Of a DNA stretch of 37,080 nucleotides, positions 3,721 through 37,080 are shown one piece after another (positions within the stretch are counted from its first letter, which is position 1; every line of letters starts with the position of its first letter). The position numbers and the translations under genes are program-made. The stretch is from Elsinoe ampelina. Lineage: Eukaryota. The stretch is taken from the NCBI GenBank assembly GCA_010093995.1, contig ML992507.1:450528-487607 (forward strand). Reading direction: 5' to 3'. The notes beneath the pieces are model-generated. The model did not search any database and was not told where the DNA came from. It saw nothing but the letters and a program-made list of their open reading frames with translations.

Positions 3721-4183
3721 TATTACGAACTAGTAGAATAGCTAGAGTATAGAGACGTTAGAACTAATTAAACTACTAAGGTTATTACGTAACCTAGCCT
3801 AATATTTACTTAGTTCTCTATCTTCCCTAGCAGCTCTACTCTAGAAACTATAGAGCACGTAGGTTACTAGCGGACGTATACTCTATATTGCTTCTAACTC
3901 TCGCTATAAAGTATATAGAGTATATAGAGTACGTAATATAGAATATATATATATAGGAATAGTCCTTACCTTATATAAGTACTATAGTTAACCTTGTCTA
4001 GATAGCGAACACTAGTATTACTAAGGCTAGCCTTTATAATACTATCTAATTGTACTTTATTATCTATAAGATATACCTTCTCTAACTCTTACCTTAGTAC
4101 TATACTACTATAGAAGTAGAACTACCTCGTTCTTAGCTTAGCTTAGACTACTAGCGTAGGCTATATTTAGACAGTTTATAACA
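3721..4183 (+). repeat. B1 5' LTR (463 bp)
   Basis: Direct repeat of 28706-29168 and inverted repeat of 12667-13129. Termini T(G/A)TTA...TAACA. Confidence 0.95.
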
Positions 4184-4299
4184 TTTTAACTACTCTTACT
4201 ATAGTATAGCACGCTACAAGGTTAATAAGTAACTCTCGCTCTAAGTTACTCTTAGTATCTTTAATCGCTAGTAAGCTAGAGAAGCTTACTATTAATAAC

Positions 4300-6291
4300 A
4301 TATCTACTACTAGTTTAACCTCGGGTAAACATAGAAGGTCTATTAGTATAGGTAAGAAACGAAGTAAGCCTAAGGTAGAGGTAGAACTCTTCTATAGGGA
4401 CTATACCTATCTAAGGCGCTTCCTTATCTAGCTTAAGATCTTCTTTGCTCTAGAAGGAGATAAGTACGCTAACGATATAGCTAAGGTCCTTTATACTAGT
4501 ATATAGCTTAAGGGTGCTACCTTTAGGTAGTTTAAACTCTATATAGAAGGCTACCTAGATAAGTAACTAAGTTCTAATACAAAAGCTATCTTTAAAAGCT
4601 TTAAGCTATTTTAAGCTAAGATTAAGTAAGTCTTTAACGTGTTAAATAAGAAATATATCGCTACGACGAAGATTAGATAACTCTAACAACGTAGATCTAT
4701 AGCCTAGTACTATTCCTAATTCTAGTAACTTATAATATACCTAGACTAGAACGATAGTACTAAACACTTAGTATTCTATTAAGGACTAAGCGACTTAGTT
4801 AAAGACTAAATAATACCTAAGCTGCCTAATAGTCTTTAGGAACTAGTAGATACTATAATTACTATTAATAATAGACTTTATAAATAACATATAGAACGTT
4901 ATAGAGGATATAAGGTAAATACTAGATATACGCGTTTCTCTTAGAATTATAGAGACTCTATAGAACTTAACGCTATACGTAAAGGCTACCCCTTATAGGT
5001 ATAAGGCTATAGCTATAGAGGAAAGTTCCTTAGTAGAAAAGAGAGAGAGAAGTATAGATAAGATAACTTATATTTTAAATATAAAAGACCTAGACATCGG
5101 GCTAGGGACTACTAATAAGAGGCGCTAGCTAATAGATTACATATAATAGTTGCTAGGCTAGTAGAGAAAAAGGCTAACACTACTATAGAAGACCTAACGA
5201 CCTTTAGTATAGGTAAAGAAACATAGAAGAAGTCTATAATAACTTAAGAGGTAATAGAACTCTCTCTAGATATTATACTTAATATCTCTATAACTAATAA
5301 TAAATAATAAAGCTATTACGTAATGCTATTATAGATAGCATATTATAACAACTCTTATTATATTTACTTATTAGACAAGTAGGGATCTAGTTAGTTTCTA
5401 TATAAGCTATCTAAGCGTAGGTAACTAATAAAATAGCTAGACTAGGAGCTTAACCTAGAAAGGCTCCCTATAATTAGTAGTAGCATTAACTAACCTTAGA
5501 AGGTAGTTAGCGATAATTACTAATATACAATTATTAAAACGAAGTACTAGAACGCAAGTACTATATAATAATATAGTAGTCTTACCTTTAGCTCTTATAG
5601 CGAACTATAAGGAAAGGTATATTATATATCGCTCTAGAAATGCATAAATCTAAATTACAAATAGTACTATACTATCTACTTATATAATATACTTAGAGAA
5701 GACACTATTAGTCTTAAATACACTACGGACTTCTTAGTAATTAAAATAGATAGTACTATCCCCTATAGCTAAGTAAGAGAGTATACTTAGTATAGCTTTA
5801 CTAATTGTAACTATACTAGAGGTAGTAGTAATAAAGAGAAATATAACAAAGAATATACTAAATAACTATAATATAATAATATAGATAAGGACTTATCTAA
5901 TAATAATAACAACGACGATATACTACTACTAAGTAGACAACTTAAGGTATACCTTATAGAAATATAGAGAAATTATATAATAATATACACCTACTACTAG
6001 AATAGGACATAATAAGACAAATCTACTTAACTTATATTTATCTTCGACACTAATATATAGCTCTATCTAGAGAGAATAGTTATACTAATATAGGTGTATA
6101 ACACTACTTAGTATAATTAGTAGAGAGTTATTAGACTTTATAGTTATTAAGGAACTTAAGCGCTAGAAGTCTACCTTATAATGTTAAATAGTAATAAGAT
6201 ATAACTAGCCTAATAGGTATAGTACTAATAGTAGATACGTGTAGGAAGAGATTAGCTACTTATCTAAGGAGCTATAATAATAAAAAACTAG
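4300..6291 (+). pseudogene. gag: B1 gag with long extension after the zinc knuckle, RIP-inactivated
   Basis: Retrotransposon gag-like ELFxGDRxRLRRFLIQLKIFF...LKGAAFxWFxPY at 4384-4542. CCHC knuckle near 5071-5112. Putative start, knuckle and AAAAAAC-TAG end (6282-6291) share one frame. Confidence 0.8.
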
Positions 6292-8416
6292 CTAGTTGTT
6301 ACCTAATAAGGTAAGATAATAACACTAGCTAAAACCTTAATATAATAAAGATCTATACGTTAAACTACTTTATACTAGAAGTCGAAATATAAGAGAATAA
6401 GGTAAGAGTAATAATAGATTTAGGAGCTAACTATAGCTACGTCTCTATAATAGTTACTAATTAGCTTAAACCTTATTAATATTAGAAGGAGTTACCTTAC
6501 CTACTTACTATAGTAGATAGAACCTCTATAGAAAAGAATAGGAAATTTACTTAGGAACTATAAGACGTTATAATTAAAATTAAAATATATATAGAAAAAC
6601 GATTAATTAATATAGTTAACATATAGTATAATATAGTACTTAGTATAGACTAGCTTTAGTAATATAATCTAGACGTAGACTAGATTAAAGAAACACTTAA
6701 ATTCCCTAAGTACAATTATAGGATATAGGAAGTATAATCGGCTCTATAGATACTAACTATAAGAATAGTATAGATACGACTAATAGTTAGAGCTATTACT
6801 AGTATAAGTAATTAAGTACTTCTACTAGAATATAAAGACTTTAAGGACTTATTTAAGGAATAGAAAGGTATTATAGCCTTGCCTTAATATAAACTATAGA
6901 ATTACAAAATACCTTTTAAGAAAGGTAAATTCCTAATATACTACTAAGGTCTTATACTATTATTAAAAAAGGAGAAAGACTTCCTTAAGAAATATATTAA
7001 TAAGTACCTATAGAAAGGATTTATATAACTATTAAAATTACTAATTACGTATAGAGTACTCTTTATACCGAAGAAGAATAGATCGCTACGACTATATATT
7101 AATTACTAGAAACTTAATACAATTACTAGAAAGAACTATTATTCTCTTCTAAGGATTAATAAACTTTAGAATTAACTTATTAGAGCTAAATAGTTCACTA
7201 TAATTAATATTAGGGACGCCTACTACTAAATACGAATAAAGGATAGTAAGGAGTAGAAGACGGCTTTTAGGACTAGGTAGAGACTCTATAAGTACCTCGT
7301 TATACTCTTTAGTCTAACTAACGTACCTATATCCTTCTAAGAATTAATTAATAATACTTTTAGAAAGTACCTTAATAACTTTGTCTCGGTATACTTAGAT
7401 AATATTATAGTCTTCTTAAAGATATATAATAAATATATAGAATATATTTATAAGGTACTATAGAAACTAAAAGAAAAAGACCTACTAGTAAAACTCTCTA
7501 AGTATAAGTTTTATAAATACAAGATACAATTTCTAGACTATATTATATCTACTAATAGCATCGGACCTAATCTAAAGAAGATTAAGTTAGTAAATAACTA
7601 GCTAGAACCTATAATAGTTAAGGAGGTTTAAGCGCTACTAAGGTTCTTTAACTACTACTATAAGTTTATTAAGAGGTTCTTTAAGGTAGCTATACTAATA
7701 TTTAACCTTATAAAAAAGAAAACTAGCTTTATCTTTAACAAAAAATATAGATAGACCTTTAAGAAGCTAAAACTTAGACTTATAATAGTACCTATTCTAG
7801 CACTCTTTAACCTAGACCGATAAGTACTACTAGAAATAGATGCCTTAGACTTTGCAATAGAAGTATATCTAGTGTAGAATAACATAGAAGAACGACGCTA
7901 TCTAATTATATACTACTTACGAAAAATGACCGGACCTAAACTTAACTATAACATATATAATAAGGAGTTACTTATAATTATAAAAGCATTCTACGAGTAG
8001 AGAGTATACCTAGAAGAAATAACCTTACCTATATAAGTCTATACCAACTATAAGAACCTTCTATATTAGATAACTACTAAGGTTCTTAATAGATAATAAG
8101 TATAATAGTTAGAAACGCTTATAAGCTATAACTTCTAGATCTATTACATTAAGGAATTAGAAAACAGCGAAGTAGATACTCTTAGCCGCCGGCTAGATTA
8201 CTTAAAAAATATAATAATAATAAAGGCCTCTATACTAAAGTAGTAAGATAGCGCTCTAGTCTATAAGTACTCGAAGGTAGAGTAGTTATATAGCCTTACC
8301 TAGGAGCTTATATAAGAATAAAAACAGAAAGTTATTTAAATACACTATAATAATCTAATAGTAGAACATAGTAGGATTAATAAGACTATTAAACTTATTA
8401 TATAGAACTACCTATA
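6282..8416 (+). pseudogene. pol: B1 pol part 1 (protease, RT, RNase H, start of integrase HHCC)
   Basis: ID(S)GA at 6414-6428, YLD(D)II at 7392, LETDASDFAI near 7830, LNYDIHDKELL near 7940, H...GH..IDKT near 8343-8390. Broken by C1 at 8417. Confidence 0.9.
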
Positions 8417-8603
8417 TATTAAAGCCTTATATTAAAGCTATATATATCGTAATATAGAGAACGCCTATCTAACTAAATAGTCCGTTAGTAGTAGAACTAA
8501 TTACTATTAAGCCTTAGGCGCAAGCGCTACGTAGAATATTTAAGTATATTACATAAGCGGGACTAGTCGCTACTAAGTGCTGCTCTAATACTAAGCTCTT
8601 ATA
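8417..8603 (-). repeat. C1 3' LTR (187 bp)
   Basis: Direct repeat of 20378-20564 and adjacent to the minus-strand PPT. Confidence 0.95.
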
Positions 8604-9041
8604 ATTGCCTTCTCCTCTAGGAGAGCTGTCCTTAGCTCTCGACTAGAAGTATATAACGTATAGTGTTATTTAGAGGTAATATAGGCGTAAGGTAGTTAAG
8701 GCATTTTTATAAAGGTCTCGTATATATCTTATATAATGTCTAGTAGTAGTAGTCCTAGGAATCTAGTTCCTAGGGGGGCGTTTATCTAGTCGCTATAGCG
8801 CTAAAGCTAATCGGCAGTAATAATATTACTTTTCTTAGAATTCCTAGTAGTATTATAGAAGACGTACGCCTTACGCTAGTAGCTATAACAAAGATATAGT
8901 ATACTAGAGATTAGTCTATATAATCTTATCGTTCCCCCTTGTATTTTTCTTTTCTATCTAAAATATATCTATATTTTATTAATCTCTTACTATATAAGCG
9001 TACTACCTACGACTATTATATTATTTAACTCTAGCTCCCCT

Positions 9042-9813
9042 ATAGCTAATACTTATAGCGTAAGGTCTACTAGCGCCTAGAGAGCTATTGCCGCTAGCGC
9101 CGACTCTATAACTCTTTTACTTCCTAAAGAGGAGGCCGATACCTATGCTAGGTATACTAATAGCGTCGCTAAGGGTAAGCTAATAGAGCTCTTATAAGAG
9201 ATATAACTAATTTATAGTAGGTCGTGTCTATACTAGAGACAACTTTAGTATCTTCTTCTATTATAAGTATAAATACTATACCTATAGTAAGCACGTATAC
9301 GAGCTACTCCTATCTATTCTACATAATATATATATCGACGCCTTTAATATAGTTACTAAGCTTAAGGCCCCCGACTAGGCTAGTATCACCGCGGCTAAGA
9401 AGTATATATATACTATAGCCTATAAGAACGTCCCTAAGGTTAAGAAGTTTAAGACTATACTTAAGGTATACTATACTAATAAGAACAAGGTTATTAGCGA
9501 GGTCTTAACTCCTTATATAGGGCCTGTAGGCGGCTCGCTTAGTAGTGTTACGCTCGAGTATAAGAAGGTTAAGAAGCTATAGAAGATTAGGCGTAGCCTT
9601 TATAGCTTAATTACTATTAGTAAGGAGGTAAGCTAGACTATACTCCTTATACGTTGTAAATATAGCTAATAGGTTTAGATAGTATATAACTCTAGTAGTT
9701 CTACTACTAAAATCGACTATGTTATAGCCGGTAGGTAGCTTATAGCCCCTATAGCACCCGTAGGGGAGGATCTTAGTATAGAGGTAAACGAGGATAGTAA
9801 TAAGGACAAGTAG
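9042..9813 (+). pseudogene. C1 antisense accessory gene, 3 exons (~9042-9174, 9218-9627, 9679-9813), putative six-Cys cluster protein of ~225 aa
   Basis: Two GTAAGC...CTAAT...TAG introns (9175-9217, 9628-9678) join three segments into one 678-nt frame with only RIP-type stops. TAT/TAC codons are spaced C-x2-C-x10-C-x12-C-x2-C-x6-C. The middle is basic and the C-terminus acidic. Confidence 0.65.
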
Positions 9814-9873
9814 GCATATATAAGCTAGGTGTATATCTCTAGCGCTATACCTATAATAAGGCCTTATATAGAA

Positions 9874-10076
9874 TAATACGAGATAGATACGAACTAGATT
9901 TAGTTAGGATATAGTTTAGATTAGTTACGTAATCTTAGTATTATAGCCTAGGCTTTTAGCTACTTTACCCTCGATATTATATATGCTTTATATACTAGCT
10001 TTTCTTTTTCTTCTTCTAAGTCTTAATATTTTAATAAATAGACATAATTAACTTCTTATCTTACTAGTTGTAATTA
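9874..10076 (+). repeat. A2 5' LTR (203 bp)
   Basis: Matches four other family A LTRs in the window. Confidence 0.95.
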
Positions 10077-10078
10077 CT

Positions 10079-10090
10079 ATATTAAGACTT
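10079..10090 (+). promoter_or_regulatory. Self-priming type primer-binding site of family A
   Basis: atattaagactt is the exact reverse complement of LTR bases 10018-10029, which lie ~25-30 bp downstream of a TATA-like tttatata. Confidence 0.65.
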
Positions 10091-10413
10091 TAAAACAACT
10101 ATAACTAAGTAATAGAGCTATTAAACTATCTAGTTATTCTACTACTTACGTAACTACTAATAACTACTACTTATAAAGAATTAAAGAATTAAAGAAGAAG
10201 CTATTATAACTATAGTTCCTACGTATACTATAATAGATCCTTACTACTACTATATAGGTTAATACTACAAATCTTAAAGATATAAGAAGAAGGTAATAAG
10301 TCGAGTTATAGATAACTCTTAAAGGAAGTAGGCTACTAGCTAAAAATTTTAATATTCCCTTTATTACGCGTTAACTTTTTATACTATTTTATTTACAACT
10401 AACTATACTAAGT

Positions 10414-11766
10414 ATAGCTTACTCTAACTATAGTAATAACAATTGCTACGTAAGTAAGATTCCTTTACCTTCTACTAATAATAATAACGAACTAGTCTAG
10501 TTAGTCTACTACGACCTTATCTACCTTAGTAACACTAACCTTAAGAAGAAGTAGTAAGAGATAGACAGTATAACTACTCTATATAAAGCCTTCGCCTTTA
10601 TCGAGTCTACCTACGACAAATAGGTTACTATATATAACTTAGTATATGCCGACGCTCTTAACCTATATAACTAGTTAGATAACGTTCTAATAGAACTAGA
10701 TACTACTAATAGCACTACTAATAATCTTACTATCTAGACTACGCGCTATCTCGTAGACATTAGCAAACTTAAGACTAAACTAGCCTAGCTAAGAGCTAAG
10801 ATAGGACGTGTTATACTAGCTCTCTTTACACGTAGTACTATATTATTAGAAAAGATACTAGACCCCGCTATCTTCTCTAGTAGCACTCTAGAACAGTTCG
10901 AGGTTTTTAAGCACTAGATAAAGAATAAGATACGTATTAACGCTAACTACTTCTCTACTAAGGCTACTTAGTTCGCCTACCTATACTTACGCCTCTCTAG
11001 CGAAGTATATACCCTTATTATAGACTCCGCTAGTAATAATACTCTCGATATTAAAGCCTCTCTTAGTCTATTAGCCTAGCGTTTCGAGGATCTAAACTGT
11101 AAGGCTATAGTACGCGCTTAGTTTACTAGTCTCTTCTAGCGTAATATCTCCTTTAACTCCTTTATTAGTAAGTTTAATAAGTATGCTCTCTACGCTAAGA
11201 TTGCTAAAGATAAATAGCTCTACTAGCTCCGCTAGAAGATATTTAGTAAGCTACGTGCCGCCCTTATTAATTTTAATACTAATAGCCTCTCTATCTTTAT
11301 TATAAAGGCCTACGCTACCGATTATAACATTTAATAGAGTAACCTTATTACTAAGCGCACTTAAGCCTTACGCGCTAGACTAGCTATAAGTTACACTACT
11401 ACTATTCCGGCTTATGTGTCTTATTCTACCTCTATACCTACTACTTTAGCTACCTTCTACTCTATTACCGGAGGGGCCCTATAGCTCTTCTATCCGGCTT
11501 AGACACTTACCTATTACACATGTAGTAAGCCTAGCTATATCTCTACTAAGTGTATAGCTAGCGCCTTAGAGAAGGCTACTTACGCCGCTATACGCCCTAT
11601 ACGTATTAGCGCTATAGAAGAGATATAATAGCTCTAGAATTACTTAGCTAAATTAAGTAACTAAGTCGACACTAGTTCGGCTTATAAACTAGATCTAGTT
11701 TAGCCTTAATTTAACCCCGAAGTAGACTATAAGTCTACTAACCTCTCTAGCTAGAGAAACAAGTAG
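10414..11766 (+). pseudogene. gag: A2 gag, RIP-inactivated
   Basis: Colinear with A1 gag at offset 10279. CCHC knuckle near 11512-11553. Confidence 0.85.
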
Positions 11767-14700
11767 CTAAAGGACAAGTCTTATTCTCTAGTAGAATAAG
11801 AGCAATTCGAGATAGATTTAGAGATATACGGTTATTAAATAGCGTTGTTAGCTACTACATCCCCGCTATTATAACTCCTATTACTATTTACGACCTCTAT
11901 AACCGCTCTTATACTATTACACTTTAAGCCTTTATCGACACTAGTGCGCTTATTAGCGCCGTAGTTAATTATAACGTTCTTAATAAGCTAAAGAGCTTTG
12001 GCTACCCTATAGCACTAGCTAGCTCTATTTAGCTTTAGGCTTATAATAGTGTTCTAATAGAGTAGGTCACATATAGCGTCTCTCTTACTACTACTGTTTC
12101 TAGTAAGCTAAATAACCTTACTATCTTCTATATTATAGATATTAGCTAATTTAATATTATTCTTAGCCTTAGATAGCTTAAAGCTAATAGAGCTACTATC
12201 GACTATAAGCATAGCCGAGTTATATATAAAGAAGAGTTTTTACTAATAGTCGTTAAGTAGGAGCTACTATAGCTAATTAAAAGGCTAGAATCTAGATCTA
12301 AGCTCGGCTTAGATCTAGGTTCTAGCTCGGCCGCCGAGATAGAATAAACTAGACTATACTAACTACTAGCTCTTAGGTTAAACTTTAAGCTAAATTAGAG
12401 AGAGTTTAAGCTAATCTCTTATAGCACTTAGCTAATGTATAAGTTCTTCTATATACCTACCTACGTAAGTAACACTAAGCGTAAAGAGCTAACTATTGCA
12501 TTTATTAGCGCTACTACCTTTATGTTAGTAGCTAAATACTAAGAGAATAAGGTGTTTATAATCTTAGTAAAGAATATTAAAGATTACTACTAAATAGCCT
12601 CCGAACTAGAACTAGACCCTATAGTAGTTCTACTAGAGGAGCTATAAGAGTTTACTAATATCTTCTTATTATAAACCGTCTAAACATAGTCTACGCTAGT
12701 AGTCTAAGCTAAGCTAAGAACAAGGTAGTTCTACTTCTATAGTAGTATAGTACTAAGGTAAGAGTTAAAGAAGGTATATCTTATAGATAATAAAGTACAA
12801 TTAGATAGTATTATAAAGGCTAGCCTTAGTAATACTAGTGTTTACTATCTAGACGAGGTTAACTATAGTACTTATATAAGGTAAGGACTATTCCTATATA
12901 TATATATTCTTTACTATGTACTTTATATACTCTATATACTTCGTAGCGAGAGTTAGAAGTAATATAGAGTACTTGTCCGCTAGTAACCTACGCGCCCTAT
13001 AGTTTCTAGAGTAGAGCTACTAGAGAAGATAAAGAAATAGGTAAATGTCGAGCTAGGTTACGTAATAACCTTAGTAGTTTAATTAGTCCTAACGTCCCTA
13101 TACTCTAGCTATTCTACTAGTTCGTAACATTACTCTCCTTCTTTAATTAAGTTATTCTAATAAGTAAGTATTTTTTCTTATTCTTATACGCTATATACTA
13201 AATATGTCTCCTAGTTGTCGAAGACATAGTAAATCTAGCATATCTACACGAAAGAACCTCTTAGAGTTTATTAAGTTATTCGGAACTAGGTAACTAAGTA
13301 AGATATCTACCTCTTACCTCTTATCGAAGAAACACTTATACGCGTAAGTAAGGCTAAGTAGTTTAGTAAGATTAACATCTACTAGGCCTTCTACTATCTC
13401 TATAACTCTATTAATAGTAAAGACCTTACTATATTCTCTATACGTATAGGCAATTTTAAGTAGTTAGTAATGCTATTTAGCCTTACTAACGCCTCTACTA
13501 TATAGTAGAGATTTATAAATTATAACTTTGTTAATATACTAGAACGCTTCGTGTTAATCTATCTTAATAATATTCTTATCTACACTAATAGTACTTATAG
13601 AGAGCACGCTAAGCATATTAAGCTAGTACTTTAATATCTCTACGATTTAGGCCTAAACGCTAACATTAAGAAGAGTAAGTTCTACCTAATAGAAGTAAAG
13701 TATCTTAGTATTATTATTAGCTAAGATAGAGTTAAGATAGACTCTAAGAAGGTAAAAGCTATACGAGCGTAGAAACAGCTAGCCTCTAGTAATACTACTT
13801 AGGTAAGGAGCTTTATTAGTTTCTATAGCTACTACTACTACTTTATTAAGGGATTTAGCACTATTGCTAAGCTATTAAATAACCTACTTAAGAAGGACGC
13901 TACGCTATAGAACGATAAATATACTACTACCTTTAACTATATAAAGTACACTATTATAAGTATACCTATTCTTACGTATTTCGATTGCTTAAAGTAAATA
14001 GTTCTTAAGACTAACGCTTCTAACACTACTACTATAGGAATTCTATTATAATATAACAAGTCTAACGTTCTCTAGCCTATTACCTTTTTTAGTAAGTCTA
14101 TAAACAAAGCCGAGCGTAACTATACTATCTATAATAAGGAGCTACTAGCTATCGTCTAAGCCTTTAAGGAGTAGGCCCCTAAGCTTATAAGTACTTAATC
14201 TAATAAGGCTATCTACGTCCTTACCGACTACTAATCCTTAATATACTTTATAAAGACTTAGAAGCTATTACGCTACTAAGTATACTAGGCCCTTTACCTT
14301 GTATAGTTTAACTTTAAGATTATATATAGGCCTAGCGCTACTAATAGCAAGGCCGACGCACTTACGAGGAGGAATAGAGATATACTATACTCGAAGAAAG
14401 ACTCTAATCTACGCTAGACACTATTACTATATAAAGTGCTAGATTAGTGCATTATTAACGAACTAAATCTAGGTCGTATCCGAACTGGATTACTAATCTA
14501 AGCTAAACTAAGATCTAGTTTAGTATCTAGTTCGCAAACTAGTTCGCTGCCTAGTTCGTTACCTATTTTACCTTCTATTTTACTACCTATTTCGACGCCT
14601 ATTTCGGCTCGCGAGCTAGGCACTTATATAGCACCTATTTCGACCTTAGGAGAGTAAACTTCGCTATTGTTTAACGAAGTAGCTAAAGTTAACTTACGAG

Positions 14701-28082: not shown

Positions 28083-28631
28083 TTAGCCGATAGAAGTACT
28101 CTAATTGTTACTAAATAGGGAACTCTAATTGGAGTTAGGCATAAATAATTACTAATTCTATAGTAGAATAAGATCTACTAACGATAGTATTTTCTCTTAC
28201 TCTAGAACTTAAATACGAGTTTCCTCTAGAGAAATTACTTTCTTTACTTTATTCTCTAATTTCTATATCTCTTCGCATAGGCGAAGCTTATTGCCTATAG
28301 CTCGTTAATAAGCCTCTTTTACCTTTTTATAAGCTTCTTTAGCTTTCTTTCTAGTAGCCTTAGCTATAACTAATTCCTTTCGTAAATAAATATACTTAGA
28401 CTAGAGACGCTACTATTCTAATTTTGTTACCTAAATATTATAACTCGAATAGTTACTTACGATATACTAGCTATAAATACCCGACTAAACGTAGACTTTA
28501 TAGTCTAGCTCTTTTAACTTATAACAAGAGCAAGCTTATAGCATATTAGTTCTAAACAATTTAATAAACTCCGAGAGGTTCTTTTATATAGATATACTAG
28601 ATTTACTATACCTTTAACAACTAGGAGGCAT
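28083..28631 (-). pseudogene. B1 antisense accessory ORF (~182 aa): Zn(II)2Cys6-like cluster followed by coiled coil, RIP-inactivated
   Basis: Intact ATG at 28631 and one frame with RIP-type stops. C-x2-C-x6-C-x8-C-x2-C-x7-C spacing at 28440-28532 (first Cys an intact TGC, the others TAT). E/K/A/R-rich helix follows. The 5' end is repeated in B2 (ATG 13204). Stop position is uncertain. Confidence 0.75.
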
Positions 28632-28705
28632 ATTTAGTATATAGCGTATAAGGACAAGAAAGAATACTTACTCGTTAGAATAACTTAATTAAAGGAGAAG
28701 AGTAA

Positions 28706-29168
28706 TGTTATAAACTAGTAGGATAGCTAGAGTATAGAGATATTAGAACTAATTAAACTACTAAGGTTATTACGTAACCTAGCCTAATATTTACCTAGTT
28801 CTTTATCTTCTCTAGTAGCTCTACTCTAGAAACTATAGAGCGTATAGGTTACTAGCGGACGTATACTCTATATTGCCCCCGACTCTCGCTATAGAGTACA
28901 TACAGCATATAGAGAACACAATAGAAAATATATATATATAGGAATAGTCCTTACCTTATATAAGTACTATAGTTAACCTCGTCTAGATAGCGAACACTAG
29001 TATTACTAAGGCTAGCCTTTATAATACTATCTAATTATACTTTATTATCTATAAGACATATCTTCTCTAACTCTTACCTTAGTGCTATACTACTATAGAA
29101 GTAGAACTACCTCGTTCTTAGCTTAGCTTAGACTACTAGCGTAGGCTATGTTTAGACGGTTTATAATA
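28706..29168 (+). repeat. B1 3' LTR (463 bp)
   Basis: Begins TGTTA after the PPT and is a direct repeat of 3721-4183. Confidence 0.95.
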
Positions 29169-31046
29169 GTATACTAGGCCCTCTACCTTATGTAGTTTAA
29201 CTTTAAAATTATATATAGGCCTAGCGCTACTAATAGTAAGGCCGACGTACTTATAAGGAGAAATAGAGACGTACTACGCTCGAAGGAAGACTCTAATCTA
29301 CGCTAGACACTATTACTATATAAGGTGCTAGATTAGCGTATTATTAACGAACTAAATCTAGGTCGTATCCGAACTAGATTACTAATCTAAGCTAAACTAA
29401 GATCTAGTTTAGTATCTAGTTTATAAACTAGTTCGCTACCTAGTTTATTACCTATTTTACCTTCTATTTCGCTACCTATTTCGATGCCTATTTTAGCTTA
29501 TAAGCTAGGCATCTACGTAGCACCTATCTTAGTCTTAGAAGAGCTACTTTTACTACTGTTTAACGAAGTAGCTAGAGCTAACTTACGAGACTCTAACTTT
29601 AAGTTAGTTCGTAGCATCTACTATATAATAGGAGCCTTTCTAAAGAGGAAATAGCTACTATTAACTAATGTTACAATCGAGAAGAGGATACTATAGGCCG
29701 ATAGCCGATTAATTGTACCTTTCTCTATAGCTATAAAAGTTATCTAAGAGGTTTATATATTAAAAGACTATATATACGAGAGAGCTACTAAGATATCTAC
29801 TATAATTAAAACTACCTTCTATATTCCTAAATACAATAGTAATATAAAGAGGTTTATTACTAACTACTATAACTATAAATAGTTAAAGGCCCGCTATAGT
29901 CTACTAGCTAGTCTCCTCTCCCTATTACCTATTCTAGTAAGACTATAGTAATATATTACTATAGACTTCGTTACTAGTCTACTCTTAGTAGACAGCTATA
30001 ACGTAGTACTCTATATCGTTAACTACCTATCTAAGGAATAGTACTTAATTCTATACTTCTCTAGAGAAGGTAGCACTTTAGCGTTTAAGACTACTAAGCT
30101 ATTATTCTTCTACGTGTAGAAACTATATAGTCTACTAGATAGTATTACCTTAGATTGCGGCCCTTAGTTCGTTAGCGACGTATAGAAGAGACTCTACTAA
30201 ATTCTAAAGATTACTACTAAACTGTCTACTATAGAGTATCTATAAATAGATAGCTAATTAGAGGTTATAAATTGCAAGTTTAAGCGAGTTATCTATTTAT
30301 ACGCTATACGCTTTAGTAATTAGACACTTATTCTACTAGTCGTAGAATTCTCTACTAATATTAACCTATTAGAGAGTACTAAGCTATTACTGTTCGAGGT
30401 TACTAGAGAATATAAGCTAAAGCTAAGCTTTTAGCCCCCTTCTAACATACTATTAATAAGAGCTAAGCTAAATAAGGTCGATATCTATACACTTACTAAG
30501 TAACTAGAGGAGGTACTAGCTATTACTAAGGCTAATCTTACTATTACCTAGTTACGGATAGTAGAATAAGTAAATAAGTATTACTAGCTAATCGAGTTTA
30601 AGGCTAGTAATTTAGTTTAGCTATTAACGAAGAACCTCTAGCTATAGGGCAATCTAAAGCTACTACTAAAGTATGTTAGTCCCTATAAGATCCTTAAGAA
30701 ACAATTACTACTAGTATATAAGCTCGATCTACTAGCTACGCTATAGAGGATCTACCTAGTGTTCTACGCTAACCTTCTTACTAAGTACCTAAATAACTCT
30801 CTACTAGGCTAAGCCTTTAATAAACTACCTCTAGTAGAGGTCGATAGTAAAGAGAAGTATAAGGTAGATAACGTAATTAATATATATATACTATAAGGGA
30901 AGCTAGTTACTTATATAAGCTAGAAGAGCTATCTAGAGGATCTTACCTAGTAGCTAATTAATAATCTTAAAGGAGTAGCTAATATACTACGTAACTATCT
31001 AGACTATTATATAGATAAGCTAAGGCTAAAATAGATCGACGAATAA
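29169..31046 (+). pseudogene. pol: A1 pol 3' part (end of RNase H, integrase, chromodomain)
   Basis: Colinear with A2 14280-16160 and A3 25343-27218. Confidence 0.9.
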
Positions 31047-31091
31047 TATATAATAGCATTTAAGAGTAAATACGTTTAAGAGGGAAGGTAG

Positions 31092-31296
31092 TAATATAAG
31101 ATAGATACGAACTAGATTCAGTTAGGATCTAGTTTAGGAATTAGTTATATAATTTTAGTATTATAGCCTAGGCTTCTAGCTACTCTACTCTTAATATTAT
31201 ATATGCTTTATATACTAGCTTTTCTTCTTCTTCTTCTAAGTCTTAATATTTTAATAAATAGACATAATTAACTTCTTATCTTACTAGTTATAATTA
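31092..31296 (+). repeat. A1 3' LTR (205 bp)
   Basis: Family A LTR with a 2-bp insertion near 31137. The predicted right TSD is TCTTC (31297-31301). Confidence 0.93.
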
Positions 31297-31896
31297 TCTT
31301 CTTACTAGTATTTCGTTATTATTAACTCTAGTAGCGTATAGAATACTATACTACTAGGCCTAGAAACTCTACCCGCTATATAGAATAAGCTACGCTACTA
31401 CTAGGTTCTAGTAGTTTTAGTAATGTATACTAGAGAATAGACCGGAGACTCGAACGAAATATAGCCTGTCGGTGCTATACTATAACTGCTATCTCGATCG
31501 TCCTTGTCTAGTCTTAAGGACGAAGGGGTAGAGTAGTTTTTAGGTTAGGTTAGGTACTAGAATTACTACCTATAACTTAACCTATAGCGATACTAGTACC
31601 TAAAGCTTAGTAACTGTAACCCTCTAAGCCTTAGGTAGTGTTACTTAGCCTTAGGTATATAGTTAGTTATAGTGTTACTTATAACACTACCTAATAGTAC
31701 CTATAGGTGCCTAAGGGTCGAGGAGTAGATATATATCTTAAGAACTTAAGATTTAAAAATTAAAATTTAAAAGTTAAAGGTTATAATTACATTTATTAAT
31801 TACGCTAATCTTACTAGCACCTCCTATCTACTCTTATAGCCTATGCCTTACTTACTTATCTACCTTTATAGAATAATTGTCCTTGCTATAAACTAT

Positions 31897-32440
31897 CTAA
31901 TTGTCCTAGTTATATATATTAAACTTTATATAATAGCGACAAGCAAGCTATAAATCTTTCTAGTTAATAGTAACTCGCTTAGTATAAATATAATTAAGAT
32001 TTATATCTAAGAATATTAGTATCTATAATAGTATTAAATTTAAATAATAGATACCTTCTATATATCTAATAATAAATGTCTCTATTGCTTCTTAAAGTGC
32101 TTTAAGAGCTTTAGATTAGATATAAAAGCTTTTATCTTAACAAATATAGTCTTTAATAATCTTATAGATAAGGCAGCTAAAGAGAAGCTTATAGTAGAGA
32201 AGTTTAGTTAACTTCTAGTAGCGATAAATCTCTCGGAGGGTAATAGCTATATAGTATTAGTAATATAATGTAATAATTAATTATAATAATTATACTACTA
32301 GCCTTAAACTTGTTCTTCTTTCTAGGAGCAATAGTTGTCTTATAAGGTTACTTAGTAGTAGAAGCCTTAGGTCTACTAGACAACTTACTCTTATAACTAT
32401 AACTATAGATTAGTACTATAGTACCTCTCTTAGGAGGTAT
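31897..32440 (-). pseudogene. Divergent histone H3 / CenH3-like gene with 2 introns, RIP-inactivated
   Basis: Exons 32440-32296, 32246-32055 and 32006-~31897 with GT..CTAAT..AG introns at 32295-32247 and 32054-32007. Spliced literal reading is KASTITLREIYRY*KLTKLLYYKLLFSCLIYKII...I*SKALKAL*EAIETFIIRYIEDINLNYIYTKRVTIN*KDL*LACR. It reverts by C>T/G>A reversal to GTVALREIRRYQKSTELLxRKLPFSRLVREI...QSEALEALQEA.E....EDTNL..IHAKRVTI.QKDLQLARR. Start and stop are approximate. Confidence 0.9.
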
Positions 32441-32602
32441 AGTTGCTATTACTACTAAGGATAGAGTCTTAGGAGGTACTTATAATATAAAGTAATCTTA
32501 TAGTAGTAAGAGTAAGGTAATAGAGAGTATAGAAAGTAATAAGGTAGATATAGTAGTAGTATAAAGAAAGATAAGTAGAAAGAGAAGAAGTAAAAGAGAT
32601 AG

Positions 32603-32659
32603 AAGAAGAGAAATATATAATAAGAAGAGAAATATATAATAAGAAGAGAAATACGTAAT
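32603..32659 (+). repeat. 19-bp tandem repeat x3 (aagaagagaaatatataat)
   Basis: Read directly. It lies in the purine-rich spacer upstream of the H3-like gene. Confidence 0.85.
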
Positions 32660-33097
32660 AATTTAGTAGCTAGTAATAGCATAGCTAACAATAGAAATGT
32701 AATATTATAATAGAAATATAAAATTAGCAAATTAGAAATGTATAGTATATAGAATACTTACTTATTATAATATTATTTACAATAGTAAGGTATATAATAT
32801 TAGATTTGTTTAAACGCTTAGAAGAAGAGGAATCTAGATATTATAGAGTACTAACAATAAATACGTAATAATCTAGCGTAATAATACAATACTAATTTAG
32901 TATACTATAATTCTTAAAAACCTTATATTTTATATTTTATATTCTACTCTAGCTACCTTATTATTACTTTATATATAGTAGAAAGCTATATTACTCTCCT
33001 CTATTCTTCTTCTTCTTCTATTAACTTTCTTTCTTCTTATCTCTACTACCCTTTTATTTCTATACCTTTAAGTTTAACTTTTATATCTTATTTTACT

Positions 33098-34405
33098 ATA
33101 GTAACCTCTCTAGATACTTCTATAGCTAATATACCTTCTAATACCTCTCCTAGTAGCTCTTCTAAGATTAAGGATAAGTTTAATAAGTTTAAAACTATAA
33201 TAGAGATAATTATTATAGCATTTTATTACAAGTATTAAGCTAATAGGTATAGGGCTTTAGGTCTAAGTAGGCTAAAATCGAATACTAGATCCTTTAGCAT
33301 AGTTAAAGTAGCAAGGCATATTATAGTTGTCTAACTAGTTTTAAAGCAGGTTTAAGTAAGTCTTTAAAGTAGAATATTTAGAACATTATATACTAAGATA
33401 AAGATACTTAATAGTTAGCTAAGGTTAAGGTACTTAAAGTAGCTAGAGATACTAATTATAGCGTAAAGAGGAATTTACTTAAGAAGTTTAATATAAATAC
33501 TTAAGTCTAGAACCTTAGTAAAGAAGTAAAGGTAGAACTCCTTATAGAAAAGATTAAAGAAATAAAGTAGCGCTATTTTAACGCCTAGTAAAGCTATATA
33601 ATTATACTACTATATTATTACGTTTAATACTAATAGATTATAGATAAATAGCTATCTAGCAAGTTTAGAAAAGTCTATATTAAATAGTAGCGTATTAGAA
33701 AATTTACTATATGTTAAGAGTATATAGAAGTCCTTATAAAGGCAAAGGTAGCTTATACTACTAAGTCTAGTAAGAAGAATAACATATTAAAAGTAGCTAA
33801 GTAGATATATAGTTCTAGCGGAATTCTCGAGAAGCTTAAGTATAAGATTTATATAGCTAGCGCTACTAAGCTTACTATTAATAAAGGTACTAATAAGAAT
33901 ACTAAGAAGAAGTACTTAAAGTTTGTCTAGAAACTTAGTAAGGAGAGTAGGCTTACTACTATCTTCGATCCTAACTAGTAGTAAGTTCCCTATTATTATT
34001 ATATATTATTATTATATTAGTATACTAATAAATAGTAGAACTTATAATTCTATATCTCCGGCTAAGTATTAACTACTCGAGCTAATCTATCTTATAGATA
34101 AAGATAAATATATAAAGCCTAATAATAATAACAAGTATAAAGAAGTATACGAGCTAGACTATAACTCTAAGATTAAGAAACTAGCTAATAAGTATAAGAT
34201 AGATAAGTAGTATATAGAGTTTAAGGGGTTTTTCTCTAATAAGGATAAGATTATTAATAAGGGAGAGAGAGTTAAAGCGGAAAGTTCTTTAGAGAGTAGA
34301 GATAAGAAGGAGAATAATAATAAGAATAATAATAAGAATAATAATAAGAATAATAATAAGAATAATAATAAGAATAATAATAAGAATAATAATAAGAATA
34401 ATAAT
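33098..34405 (+). pseudogene. Multi-exon gene of unknown function with probable acidic C-terminal tail, RIP-inactivated, runs into the gap
   Basis: ATA GTA ACC TCT CTA GAT (ATG GCA ACC TCT CCA GAT) start. Intron-like segments at ~33356-33414, ~33588-33643 and ~33981-34035. Codon-like K/E-rich frames with RIP-type stops. No family recognised. Confidence 0.55.
34310..34405 (+). repeat. 12-bp tandem repeat (aagaataataat) x~8, truncated by the gap
   Basis: Read directly. It is in frame with the preceding pseudogene and compatible with a RIPed GAG-RAT-GAT-GAT (Glu/Asp) tract. Confidence 0.9.
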
Positions 34406-34600
34406 NNNNNNNNNNNNNNNNNNNNNNNNNNNNNNNNNNNNNNNNNNNNNNNNNNNNNNNNNNNNNNNNNNNNNNNNNNNNNNNNNNNNNNNNNNNNNNN
34501 NNNNNNNNNNNNNNNNNNNNNNNNNNNNNNNNNNNNNNNNNNNNNNNNNNNNNNNNNNNNNNNNNNNNNNNNNNNNNNNNNNNNNNNNNNNNNNNNNNNN
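34406..34600. other. Assembly gap (195 N)
   Basis: Run of N. Confidence 1.
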
Positions 34601-37080
34601 ATACTAAGGAAGATAAATTTACTAGCTTTAACTAGTAGATTTTCTATACTATAATCAACTACTAAGTAGTTTAATCTATAGTATAGTCCGGCCCTTTTAT
34701 AGATTTGAGTTTTATAATAAGATCTTTTCCTATATAGCTACTATTATTATTTATGCTTCTAATTGTTACTTCTAATAATAGTAAATTATCTATATTATTA
34801 CTTCTAACAATAGATTTCTATTACTATTGTTACTATAAATAATAGAAGGTACTAGATATATATACTATCTTATTCCTATTTATTCTTCTTTCTAAAACCT
34901 TTCTTTCTTATTATTATAGCTTCTTATATATAACTCTATTCCGACCTAGGAGATTTAATTCTCTACTAGCCTTATACTATAACTTATAGTAACTACGCTA
35001 GGCTACTATACTTACGTTAGTGTAAAGCTTATATCTGCCGTATAACTAAGTAATTTATTGATAGCGAGGAAAGGTAGACTACTTATATCTATAATAATAA
35101 TAGAGGCTCTAAACTTTGCTATAAGGCCTATTACTCTTATAATACTCCTTGTAACTTTATTAGTATTTCTAATCTAATACTACTATATTCTCTAATAAGT
35201 ATTAGTATAACAGCTTCTAGACTAATAATATTTTTAACCTTATCGACATATAGTATATACTTAATCGTTGCTATCTTAATCTTATCCGGGATTAGATTAT
35301 AATCTTTAATATACGCTATAGCGTTAAACGCTAGTAGGACGAGCTAGATAATTCTAAATCCTAAGGATCTTAATAGTTCTAATTCTTCTAGTAACTAGTT
35401 TAGTAGTATAATATAAATAAAGCATTAGTAGGCTAATAGCTTTAGTAGGTTTTTTATAACATAGATATGCTTTTAATTTTAAAAAATTTCTACTCTACCC
35501 TAATATAGATATGCCTTTAATTTTAATTATATTATCTATTCCTTAGCCCCTATATAATATAAGTCTAGCCTATAGAAATTAATATACTTCTTACTTTAAA
35601 GTTTCTATAGTATAGTATAGGATTTATTATTATATATTATAAATATATTAATAAATATTCTATAATAAGTTATCTACCTTTATTAAATAATATAATCTAC
35701 ACTAATTGACATATCTAAAGCTTCTAACTTTAAGTTAGTACTTAACCTATAACTTAGAGATACTATATATTTCTCTCTAGCTATTCTAGTAGAATTACGT
35801 AGCTTTATAATCTCTACTTAGAATGTTAGATGTAATAGTAGAATATAACAATTATAACTCCTTAAATGCTTGCCTTTTTAACCTAGTAAGAGATTTAAGA
35901 ATTAACCTCTATAATAAGCCTAGAAAGACTAGTAGAGTTAAACAATTATAGTATCTATATATAGAGAAGGCACGAAAAATACACTAAATTAGAATTCTAA
36001 AGCACGTTTTAGAGGTCTATAGGCAAATATTATAGAAGCTACTAAGATTTACAATAGAGAACTATAAGTTATTTATAATAGGTGTAGTAATATACTTACT
36101 TATCCTACTTACTATTATACTAGTAATAAAGCAATAGAGAGATATCTTAAGTCTTAGAAATATACTATAGTTGTTAAGTACTACTATAAGTAAAGCCCTA
36201 CCTAAAAAGCCCTTAAGTAATTATAATAGTATATAAAGAGCATTTACTAAATTGTCTCTCTATTCTCTACTAATACCTTCTACTATAAGCTTGTTTATGT
36301 AGTTACTAACTATAACTAGTCTTTCTATATAGTTAAGCGTTCTATCTTTAGCTAATTCCTCCGCTTCCTCTAACCTAATATTACTATACCTAGCTAGACT
36401 CTTTTTTAAGTAACACTAGTAGCATAATTTAAAAGGTTATAAAAATTGCTACTCTCTAACCTTAGTAAGAATACTAAGCTTTTAATAGCGTTAGATAGAT
36501 AGTCTACTAATAACTACTTAGGGTTTATTATAATTAAAGGCTATTTTATTAATAACTAATAGTAATTACAAGAGTAGCTTCTAGAAATAACACCTCTTCG
36601 AGGTTACTACACTAGTAAAGCTATAGTAAATAAGGTAATATAGGTACTAAAAGATATATCGGTTAAGTAATAACTACTTGTAGTTATAGTAGATAATATA
36701 TTAAACAATAGAACACTCTAAGAGTCTCTTAAAAGAAGCCTAGGTATACTAGATATTAAGTAGAACACAAAGAAGAATATAATTCTATACCTAGTATATA
36801 TTATTAATCTTATTATATAGGACATTATTAAGCATCTAAAACTTAAAACAAGTAAAGAGATTAATATAGTAAAGAAGTTATAAAACTACTATATCTAGAA
36901 TATTATAATATTAGTCTCTATCTTAAATCTACTATAGAAGGTATATAATATTTATTATATTATTTTATTACGTCCTAATATCGGCAAGCTCTATATAATA
37001 TATATTATAATTAATAGTTCTCTATAATAGTTTAAACAATTTATAGACCTCTAGAAGTATCTACTACCTAAGAAGAGGTA
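34601..37080. other. RIP-degraded unclassified sequence, possibly minus-strand coding remnants
   Basis: Same TpA-rich, CpA/TpG-poor signature and no match to families A-C. Some codon-like minus-strand stretches (e.g. RLEEAEELAKDRTL near 36335-36376). Confidence 0.4.

Follow-up and report, generated by a model that had tools for sequence, protein, structure and literature searches.

The stretch of Elsinoe ampelina DNA analysed here (37,080 nt of contig ML992507.1, positions 450,528 to 487,607 of the forward strand; hereafter the window) holds at 31906-32440, on the minus strand, the remains of a gene for a histone H3-like protein. With fairly high confidence, the locus is read as a dead copy of an H3L-type gene in a many-copy repeat that resembles a DNA transposon, probably a hAT element, and that repeat-induced point mutation (RIP) has killed. 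H3L is an H3 lineage in its own right, with introns in its genes; it has been described from hAT transposons of Pyrenophora tritici-repentis (PMC3538342) and also occurs in other Pleosporales. The reading is carried by a recognisable histone fold, an affinity to H3L, a RIP signature, a many-copy state and one sharp end of the element, all of which are shown by the data.

Gene model and histone fold

The pseudogene was modelled as three exons on the minus strand, with a joined frame of 438 nt (146 codons) that contains seven internal TAA or TAG stops and has ATA where ATG is expected. A two-intron frame at 31897-32440 had been claimed in an earlier note, made on this DNA from its letters only, and it agrees with the model to within 9 nt. 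The parts of the gene are as follows.

31906..32440, minus strand: RIP-inactivated, H3L-type histone H3-like pseudogene of 146 codons, with seven internal stops and ATA at the start position
32296..32440, minus strand: exon 1, a divergent N-terminal tail ending K-F-K-A-(G)-T (gene model and alignment)
32247..32295, minus strand: intron 1, 49 nt, GT..AG, with a TACTAAT-like branch site; the related protein P0167 reads through an intron at the same place
32055..32246, minus strand: exon 2, with alpha-N/alpha-1, loop 1 (three residues longer) and alpha-2 (Pfam, PDB and alignment)
32007..32054, minus strand: intron 2, 48 nt (16 codons), GT..AG, in frame, at the FE|D position, as in the read-through models P0011, P0024 and P0164
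31906..32006, minus strand: exon 3, D-x-N-L-N-x-I-(H)-(A)-KRVTI ... LA-(R)-R-Y-Y-x-K-F C-terminus, with the TAG stop at 31908-31906

In both introns, a TACTAAT-like stretch can be seen by eye shortly upstream of the AG. Exon 2 alone (63 residues, stops as X) was found to match the Pfam family Histone (PF00125) with an E value of 6.8e-5 and 23.6 bits, below the gathering score of 26.4, as is expected for a RIP-mutated piece of 63 residues; exon 3 matched the same family at E 0.017, and no Pfam match was obtained for the N-terminal tail. In PDB, exon 2 matched 167 distinct sequences at E<=1 (best 2.1e-6), and the best 60 of these 167 were all H3, H3/CENP-A or histone-domain chains. When exon 2, intron 2 and exon 3 were read through as 112 residues, 552 proteins were matched at E<=1e-3 among 1.84 billion representatives, the top matches being concatenated gene models of canonical H3. 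It is confirmed that the locus is a pseudogene with the histone H3 fold, its homology lying well beyond chance. This copy is dead and has no function of its own, and the suggested roles as a chromatin or centromere mimic or as an anti-silencing histone have no bearing on it. Within the window, no second H3-like copy was found at E<1 except for two weak matches (0.43 and 0.59).

The departures from canonical H3 that had been listed in the earlier note are present in the alignment and the codons. These are the codon AGC (S) at position 68, a loop 1 three residues longer than that of canonical H3, the codon ATC (I) at position 84, which C>T/G>A changes cannot make from TGG or TTY, and the replacement of the 'CA' of NLCAIH by AAT TAT. 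With regard to the tail, the absence of ARTKQTARK was upheld, while the motifs RGRGRK and KQPRK, obtained by undoing RIP, are one possible but not unique reading of very ambiguous codons.

A many-copy repeat mutated by RIP

The pseudogene lies in a repeat family of which many copies exist, and these copies differ from one another almost only by transitions.

31529..34405, unstranded: body of the many-copy, RIP-mutated repeat holding the pseudogene; contig cover was examined to 34400, and no right end was located

Contigs from four public runs (X1, X3, X4 and X7, with three organism labels and from four studies) were aligned to 31000-34400 at a likeness of at least 80%. The number of contigs fitted was 1179 for X1, 4131 for X3, 2472 for X4 and 218 for X7, and they were spread over the identity classes 99+, 95-99, 90-95 and under 90. 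At the places listed for X1, 160 differences were transitions (A>G 61, T>C 46, G>A 31, C>T 22) and only 3 were transversions. Inside the gene, at the single places 31999, 32079 and 32409, another letter was carried by 8-29 distinct contigs of one run, the maximum of 29 being reached at 32409 in X3. Bin 31342-31455, which was covered by one X1 contig and by none in X3, X4 and X7, served as an internal negative control, and because it is almost bare, the cover of the repeat is not due to unspecific matching of AT-rich DNA. Summed word depth in X1 was 177 in the spacer, 4,000-11,000 in the gene and 47,000-100,000 in the neighbouring long terminal repeat (LTR) part; contig and word depths are not copy numbers, which tells against too firm a reading of them, and the word depth is taken as no more than a rough sign of tens of copies. 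The proposal that the locus belongs to a multi-copy, RIP-mutated element was thus borne out for 31529-34400, by the contig cover and by the dominance of transitions.

The usual cut-offs for RIP are 0.89 for TpA/ApT and 1.03 for (CpA+TpG)/(ApC+GpT). In the pseudogene, these indices are 1.65 and 0.27, respectively, and the other segments are similar: a strong dinucleotide bias was found in all six segments measured (1.6-2.4 and 0.14-0.27). The window is AT-rich throughout, with a GC content of 0.18-0.37 per kb.

Placement in the H3L clade

The best match that is not a concatenated model is P0011 (E 3.1e-13). This gene call from a metagenome aligns through the read-through of intron 2; it runs through an intron at the same place and has an odd C-terminus in common with the locus. 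Among its relatives are two clusters named 'histone H3 [Pyrenophora tritici-repentis]' (158 aa, with 19 and 6 member sequences), which match the H3L genes of PMC3538342; the other named relatives come from Paraphoma chrysanthemicola, Massariosphaeria phaeospora, Pyrenophora seminiperda and Alternaria gaisen. In P0024, this P. tritici-repentis protein recurs with 16 residues of read-through intron at FE|D, which agrees with intron 2 in both place and length. However, the FE|D position alone is not specific to H3L, because the CenH3-like metagenome models P0019 and P0022 also have an intron there.

A tree of the histone fold, which the earlier note had put forward as a check, was built from 29 rows with the locus left out; the RIP-mutated locus was then placed by likelihood, and the rows do not include the H3 and CenH3 genes of the host. 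In the tree, 15 rows made up the H3L clade (support 99/94), the four named CenH3 rows formed a separate group (88/90), and the H3L clade joined canonical H3 (85/93). Masking the RIP-ambiguous codons as X leaves 17 of the 146 codons unambiguous, which is unusable for a tree. Because neither codon masking nor a score based on the best ancestor of each codon discriminated between the families, the observed codons were scored against group profiles with an explicit model of C>T/G>A change, over 90 shared columns (codons 50-142) and at RIP rates of 0.3-0.9. With this RIP-aware likelihood, H3L came out ahead, with a margin of 22.2-30.5 nats against CenH3 and of 32.7-41.4 nats against H3. The procedure was calibrated with leave-one-out profiles and simulated RIP at a rate of 0.7; H3L was called for 70/70 simulations from H3L rows (margin 15.9-51.1), for 0/25 from CenH3 and for 0/20 from H3.

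The single columns were also inspected. Undoing C>T/G>A could give the majority residue of H3L at 62 of 70 columns, that of CenH3 at 70 of 90 and that of H3 at 67 of 88. Twelve columns have differing majorities in H3L and CenH3, and six of them fit H3L only, one CenH3 only, two both and three neither. In the columns of three of the seven internal stops, 12-14 of the 14 H3L rows have Q. These comparisons support the assignment of the fold of the locus to the H3L clade, a separate H3-like lineage which is neither canonical H3 nor CenH3. That the locus is an independently evolving variant, and neither of the two host-type histones, had already been proposed, and the RIP-aware likelihood agrees with this in placing it in H3L.

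The H3L clade is wider than the single species from which it was described. Intact genes of the clade were seen on many metagenome contigs (P0011, P0164, P0167, P0171, P0172, P0023, P0024 and P0025). It was also observed that gene callers read through an intron of 48-51 nt in H3L genes, which gives an insert of 16-17 residues at FE|D. When metagenome loci were scanned with the H3L alignment, the best 80 of 566 confirmed loci were all intronless canonical H3 and gave no H3L context; likewise, in a search for longer H3L fusions (e.g. with a transposase), the 120 matches listed were all concatenated or extended models of canonical H3.

The end of the element and the nature of the carrier

One sharp end of the repeat was located, on the side towards which the 3' end of the pseudogene faces, about 380 bp from the gene.

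31529..31778, unstranded: left terminus of the repeat family, with a TAGAG start and 11 TAGGT/ACCTA subterminal motifs in 250 nt
31521..31528, unstranded: candidate 8-bp target site in the left flank, the only flank within the window

In X3, X4 and X7, cover starts within bin 31456-31569 at about 36% of the depth of the next bin, and it is therefore consistent with a start of the repeat at 31529; loose contig ends of low agreement (0.51) lie before this position. The 11 TAGGT/ACCTA motifs at the terminus compare with a window mean of 1.22 (sd 1.31), and this count was reached by 1 of 737 tiles. The ends of hAT elements have the terminal consensus YARNG and carry dense short subterminal repeats. 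The TAGAG start at 31529 fits a terminus of the YARNG type. A published hAT consensus that carries an H3 gene, that of C. zeae-maydis (Czm_cons, Additional file 2 of PMC6710886), also starts with TAGAG.

On these grounds of sequence likeness, the carrier is probably a DNA transposon of the hAT type, in which the gene would be cargo lying between two terminal inverted repeats (TIRs). Three results weigh against this. No second TIR was found in the window, which ends at 37080 and has a gap at 34406-34600, and the only other match at three or fewer mismatches is at chance level. When the three plus frames across 31297-37080 and the three minus frames across 32441-37080 were scanned with Pfam, neither a transposase domain (BED, DUF659 or hAT dimerisation) nor any other domain was detected at E<=1; as a positive control, the RIP-mutated reverse transcriptase and RNase H of the neighbouring LTR element were found in the same way. 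No 12-mer of the terminus occurs in the published file of hAT-H3 consensus sequences (PMC6710886, Additional file 2). As to the transposase, possible reasons for its absence are a position outside the window, a non-autonomous copy or RIP that is too far advanced. Hence, of the mobile-element flanks that had been anticipated, one sharp end was found within the window, and a TIR pair and a transposase were not.

It might accordingly be asked whether an H3L-type gene is carried in many copies by something other than a hAT element, such as a DNA transposon of another class, a composite repeat or a larger mobile element of which it is cargo. This is considered unlikely, though it deserves serious thought: neither a hAT, BED or DUF659 domain nor a second TIR or target site duplication (TSD) was found in the window, and the hAT call draws on the P. 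tritici-repentis case, a terminal consensus of five nucleotides and the subterminal repeats. On the other hand, the end at 31529 is unlike that of an LTR (there is no TG..CA-type start), and its TAGAG start with dense subterminal repeats is as in hAT ends generally and as in the published consensus of an H3-carrying hAT element. The only characterised carrier of H3L, moreover, is a hAT element (PMC3538342).

Other explanations

The locus could belong to the family of canonical-H3-derived genes that is carried by hAT elements and destroyed by RIP in Pseudocercospora, Cercospora and Sphaerulina (PMC6710886), although this is thought very unlikely. The setting is the same, an AT-rich, RIP-mutated block with hundreds of copies; the TAGAG start is that of Czm_cons and the TAGGT-type subterminal repeats are those of Czm_cons and of the P. 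musae consensus (Pmu_cons); and the 48-nt intron has the length of the '16-aa insertion' reported there. Against membership, the P. musae consensus, when read by eye, is of the canonical type, with Q68, F84, a loop 1 of normal length and an R-L-R C-terminus, and its codon at C110 (D-T-N-L-x-A-I) can, again by eye, be derived from C by RIP, whereas canonical H3 is rejected for the locus by 33-41 nats. Apart from the missing terminal 12-mers, the exon-3 11-mer is absent from the consensus file in either orientation, and the exon-2 11-mer finds its match in the file at the conserved L-R-E-I codons and nowhere else.

A duplicate of the host's CenH3 that was altered by RIP, and that landed in repeat DNA or was copied with it, is if anything slightly less probable still. 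In its favour are S68, the three additional residues of loop 1, which give the locus the loop length of all four named CenH3 rows, and the apparent (M)PPK start, which is like that of three of the four (MPPR, MPPK and MPPK) and of no H3L row; the whole-protein score with the best ancestor for each codon does not separate the families (H3L 389-442, CenH3 406-432, H3 383). Further points against the H3L placement are that position 84 (ATC, I) has neither F, the majority residue of H3L, nor W, that of CenH3, and that the host's own H3 and CenH3 genes are not among the sequences compared. As for the (M)PPK(R) start itself (32428-32440, minus strand), it may be due to chance, exon 1 may be of chimeric origin, or the start may be misplaced.

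What speaks against a CenH3 duplicate is the RIP-aware likelihood, which favours H3L by 22-31 nats, with 0/25 simulated RIP-mutated CenH3 genes called H3L. All four named CenH3 rows have W84, N-L-C-A-I-H and an R-R-I-R-G C-terminus, none of which the locus shows, and its ATC, AAT-TAT and TAT-TAT codons are not RIP products of CenH3 residues at most such places. ATC, in particular, is not derivable from TGG (W84), the F and A of K-F-K-A-G-T are not RIP-derivable from the Y and P of CenH3, and the N-L-N, K-D-S and R-Y-Y-x-K-F features fit H3L only. The stretch also exists in many diverged copies. The 'CenH3-like traits' which the earlier note had stressed are no sign of kinship, as S68 is the commonest residue at position 68 within the H3L clade and as both the length of loop 1 and residue 84 (F, Y, M and W were seen) vary among H3L rows. 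Nor does the tree built without the locus speak for a CenH3 ancestry, since it groups H3L with canonical H3 and not with CenH3 (85/93). It is concluded that the CenH3 flavour of the locus is superficial.

That the locus is one host gene outside any repeat, decayed through RIP that spread from the LTR element next to it, is hardly credible. The gene does lie about 600 bp from the end of that high-copy element and has no second copy within the window, but in three runs 31529-34400 is covered by contigs of graded identity that number hundreds to thousands per run, and the part of the spacer next to the LTR element (31342-31455) is almost bare.

Setting of the repeat in the window

The H3L-bearing repeat is preceded by a different, high-copy element, from which it is separated by a short spacer, and is followed by an assembly gap.

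31001..31296, unstranded: end of the last copy of a Ty3/Gypsy-type LTR element, with loose contig ends at 31296 (agreement 0.52-0.60)
31297..31528, unstranded: low-copy spacer between the end of the LTR element and the H3L-bearing repeat (contig cover)
34406..34600, unstranded: assembly gap of 195 N after a (AATAATAAG)n microsatellite, which hides whether the repeat continues

Positions 1-31296 are occupied by at least three copies of one repeat, at a spacing of 10-11 kb. On the plus strand, Pfam domains were recovered from it despite RIP, namely RVT_1 (6.9e-8), RT_RNaseH_2 (5.1e-18), RT_RNaseH (7.7e-15) and a Tf2-type SH3 domain (4.7e-4), and the repeat is therefore a Ty3/Gypsy-type LTR retroelement. 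A 300-nt family at 9874, 16208, 21201, 27264 and 31094 may be its LTR. Two inverted repeat pairs were seen (12667-13288 with 28547-29168, 622 nt, 89%; 3723-4181 with 12669-13127, 459 nt, 93%), which means that a segment of the repeat occurs in reverse orientation as well, probably as a result of nested insertion.

The spacer measures 232 bp, has a higher GC content (0.38) than its surroundings and is covered, among the four runs, by one X1 contig only; possibly it is left over from the DNA into which insertion originally took place. Nothing in 31346-37080 was found to be repeated within the window, where it gave only AT-rich matches of low identity (57-66%). In run X7, the last bin before the gap (34306-34400) has a summed depth of 2904, far above the rest, and the (AATAATAAG)n run continues into the gap.

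Origin and meaning of the dead copy

For the preferred reading, a dead H3L-type copy in a probable hAT element, the following course of events would account for what is seen. The H3L gene lies some 380 bp in from an end of a repeat that resembles a DNA transposon and points to that end, and the element would have multiplied to many copies in the host genome. RIP would have hit the element because it was repeated, and the resulting C>T and G>A changes would have turned CAA and CAG codons into stops and ATG into ATA, and brought the GC content down to about 25%. Multiplication would in this order have preceded RIP.

A broader idea, which is entertained only tentatively and is thought rather improbable, sees in H3L a true histone lineage that transposons have carried for a long time and that has its own function, and not a recent, accidental capture in a single species. 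The lineage is monophyletic (99/94), bears introns and occurs in several Pleosporales genera and on many environmental fungal contigs; its fold is conserved, while consistent changes (of the C110>N, I124>S and I130>Y type) affect the C-terminus and the residues which, in H3, make up the H3-H3' four-helix bundle. If the idea is true, H3L could form its own nucleosome on the element or for its benefit, for instance by resisting heterochromatin marks, and the present locus would be the wreck of a large H3L expansion that was stopped by the RIP of the host.

The value of the dead locus is comparative. H3L was described as a recent, RIP-free expansion in one species, and it is met here in many RIP-destroyed copies under three organism labels, which suggests that H3L has been tied to mobile DNA for longer, and more widely, than published accounts have it. 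The locus also joins the two published outcomes, intact in Pyrenophora and RIP-killed in Mycosphaerellaceae, for a different lineage of cargo. Surveys of protein sets, as outlined in the Methods of PMC6710886, would miss RIP-mutated copies of this kind.

Comparison with known systems

Apart from PMC3538342 and PMC6710886, no other report of H3L-type or histone-carrying fungal transposons was found in the literature; PMC5915480 and bioRxiv 10.1101/2025.11.13.688278 contain no mention of 'histone'. The remark in the earlier note that H3 homology had been noted before in RIP-mutated fungal repeats proved correct, being published in these two papers.

With canonical H3, the locus has the histone fold and both intron positions in common, but Q68, F84, C110-A111, I124, I130 and the ARTKQTARK tail are all absent from it. 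It resembles fungal CenH3 (hH3v / Cse4) in S68, the longer loop 1, the divergent tail and the possible MPPK start, and differs in the lack of W84, in the C110 region and the C-terminus, in its many copies and in the likelihood, which is against CenH3.

Dhillon et al. (2019; PMC6710886) reported 784 RIP-killed H3-like copies on hAT elements of 9.5 kb in AT-rich blocks of Pseudocercospora fijiensis, and 135-520 H3-like copies in five of its relatives; the DNA transposon that carries them measures about 9.5 kb and its TSD 8 bp. The present family is alike in that its H3-like genes are RIP-killed, are present in many copies in AT-rich blocks and lie near similar termini (TAGAG start, TAGGT repeats); the two differ in their cargo, which is canonical-H3-like there (by eye) and of the H3L type here, and have no terminal 12-mer in common. 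In Additional file 2, the H3-like frame on the reverse strand of Pmu_cons seems by eye to have retained a 48-nt GT..AG intron at FE|D and, just before (T)VTLREI, a TACTAAC...TAG acceptor. The '16-aa insertion' described in the second P. fijiensis copy equals a 48-nt intron in length. Such an intron would seem to sit badly with the conclusion of PMC6710886 that an intron-less transcript was captured.

In P. tritici-repentis, Manning et al. (2013; PMC3538342) described 26 near-identical, open and transcribed H3L genes, which are carried by 'transduplicating' hAT transposons of 5.6 kb and 2.3 kb with little RIP; the authors place H3L in neither the H3 nor the CenH3 group. The present locus is of the same protein lineage, is likewise present in many copies in a mobile element and has an intron 2 of identical position and of the same 48-nt length (P0024). 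It differs in its seven internal stops and heavily RIP-mutated family, as against open transcribed copies, in a tail without MARTK, in a loop 1 that is three residues longer and in its carrier, the hAT nature of which was demonstrated there and is suggested here. Transposon-borne H3-like genes, intact or destroyed by RIP, have thus been published already, and the locus is a new example and not a new phenomenon: it combines the protein lineage of the P. tritici-repentis case (PMC3538342) with the fate of the Pseudocercospora case (PMC6710886).

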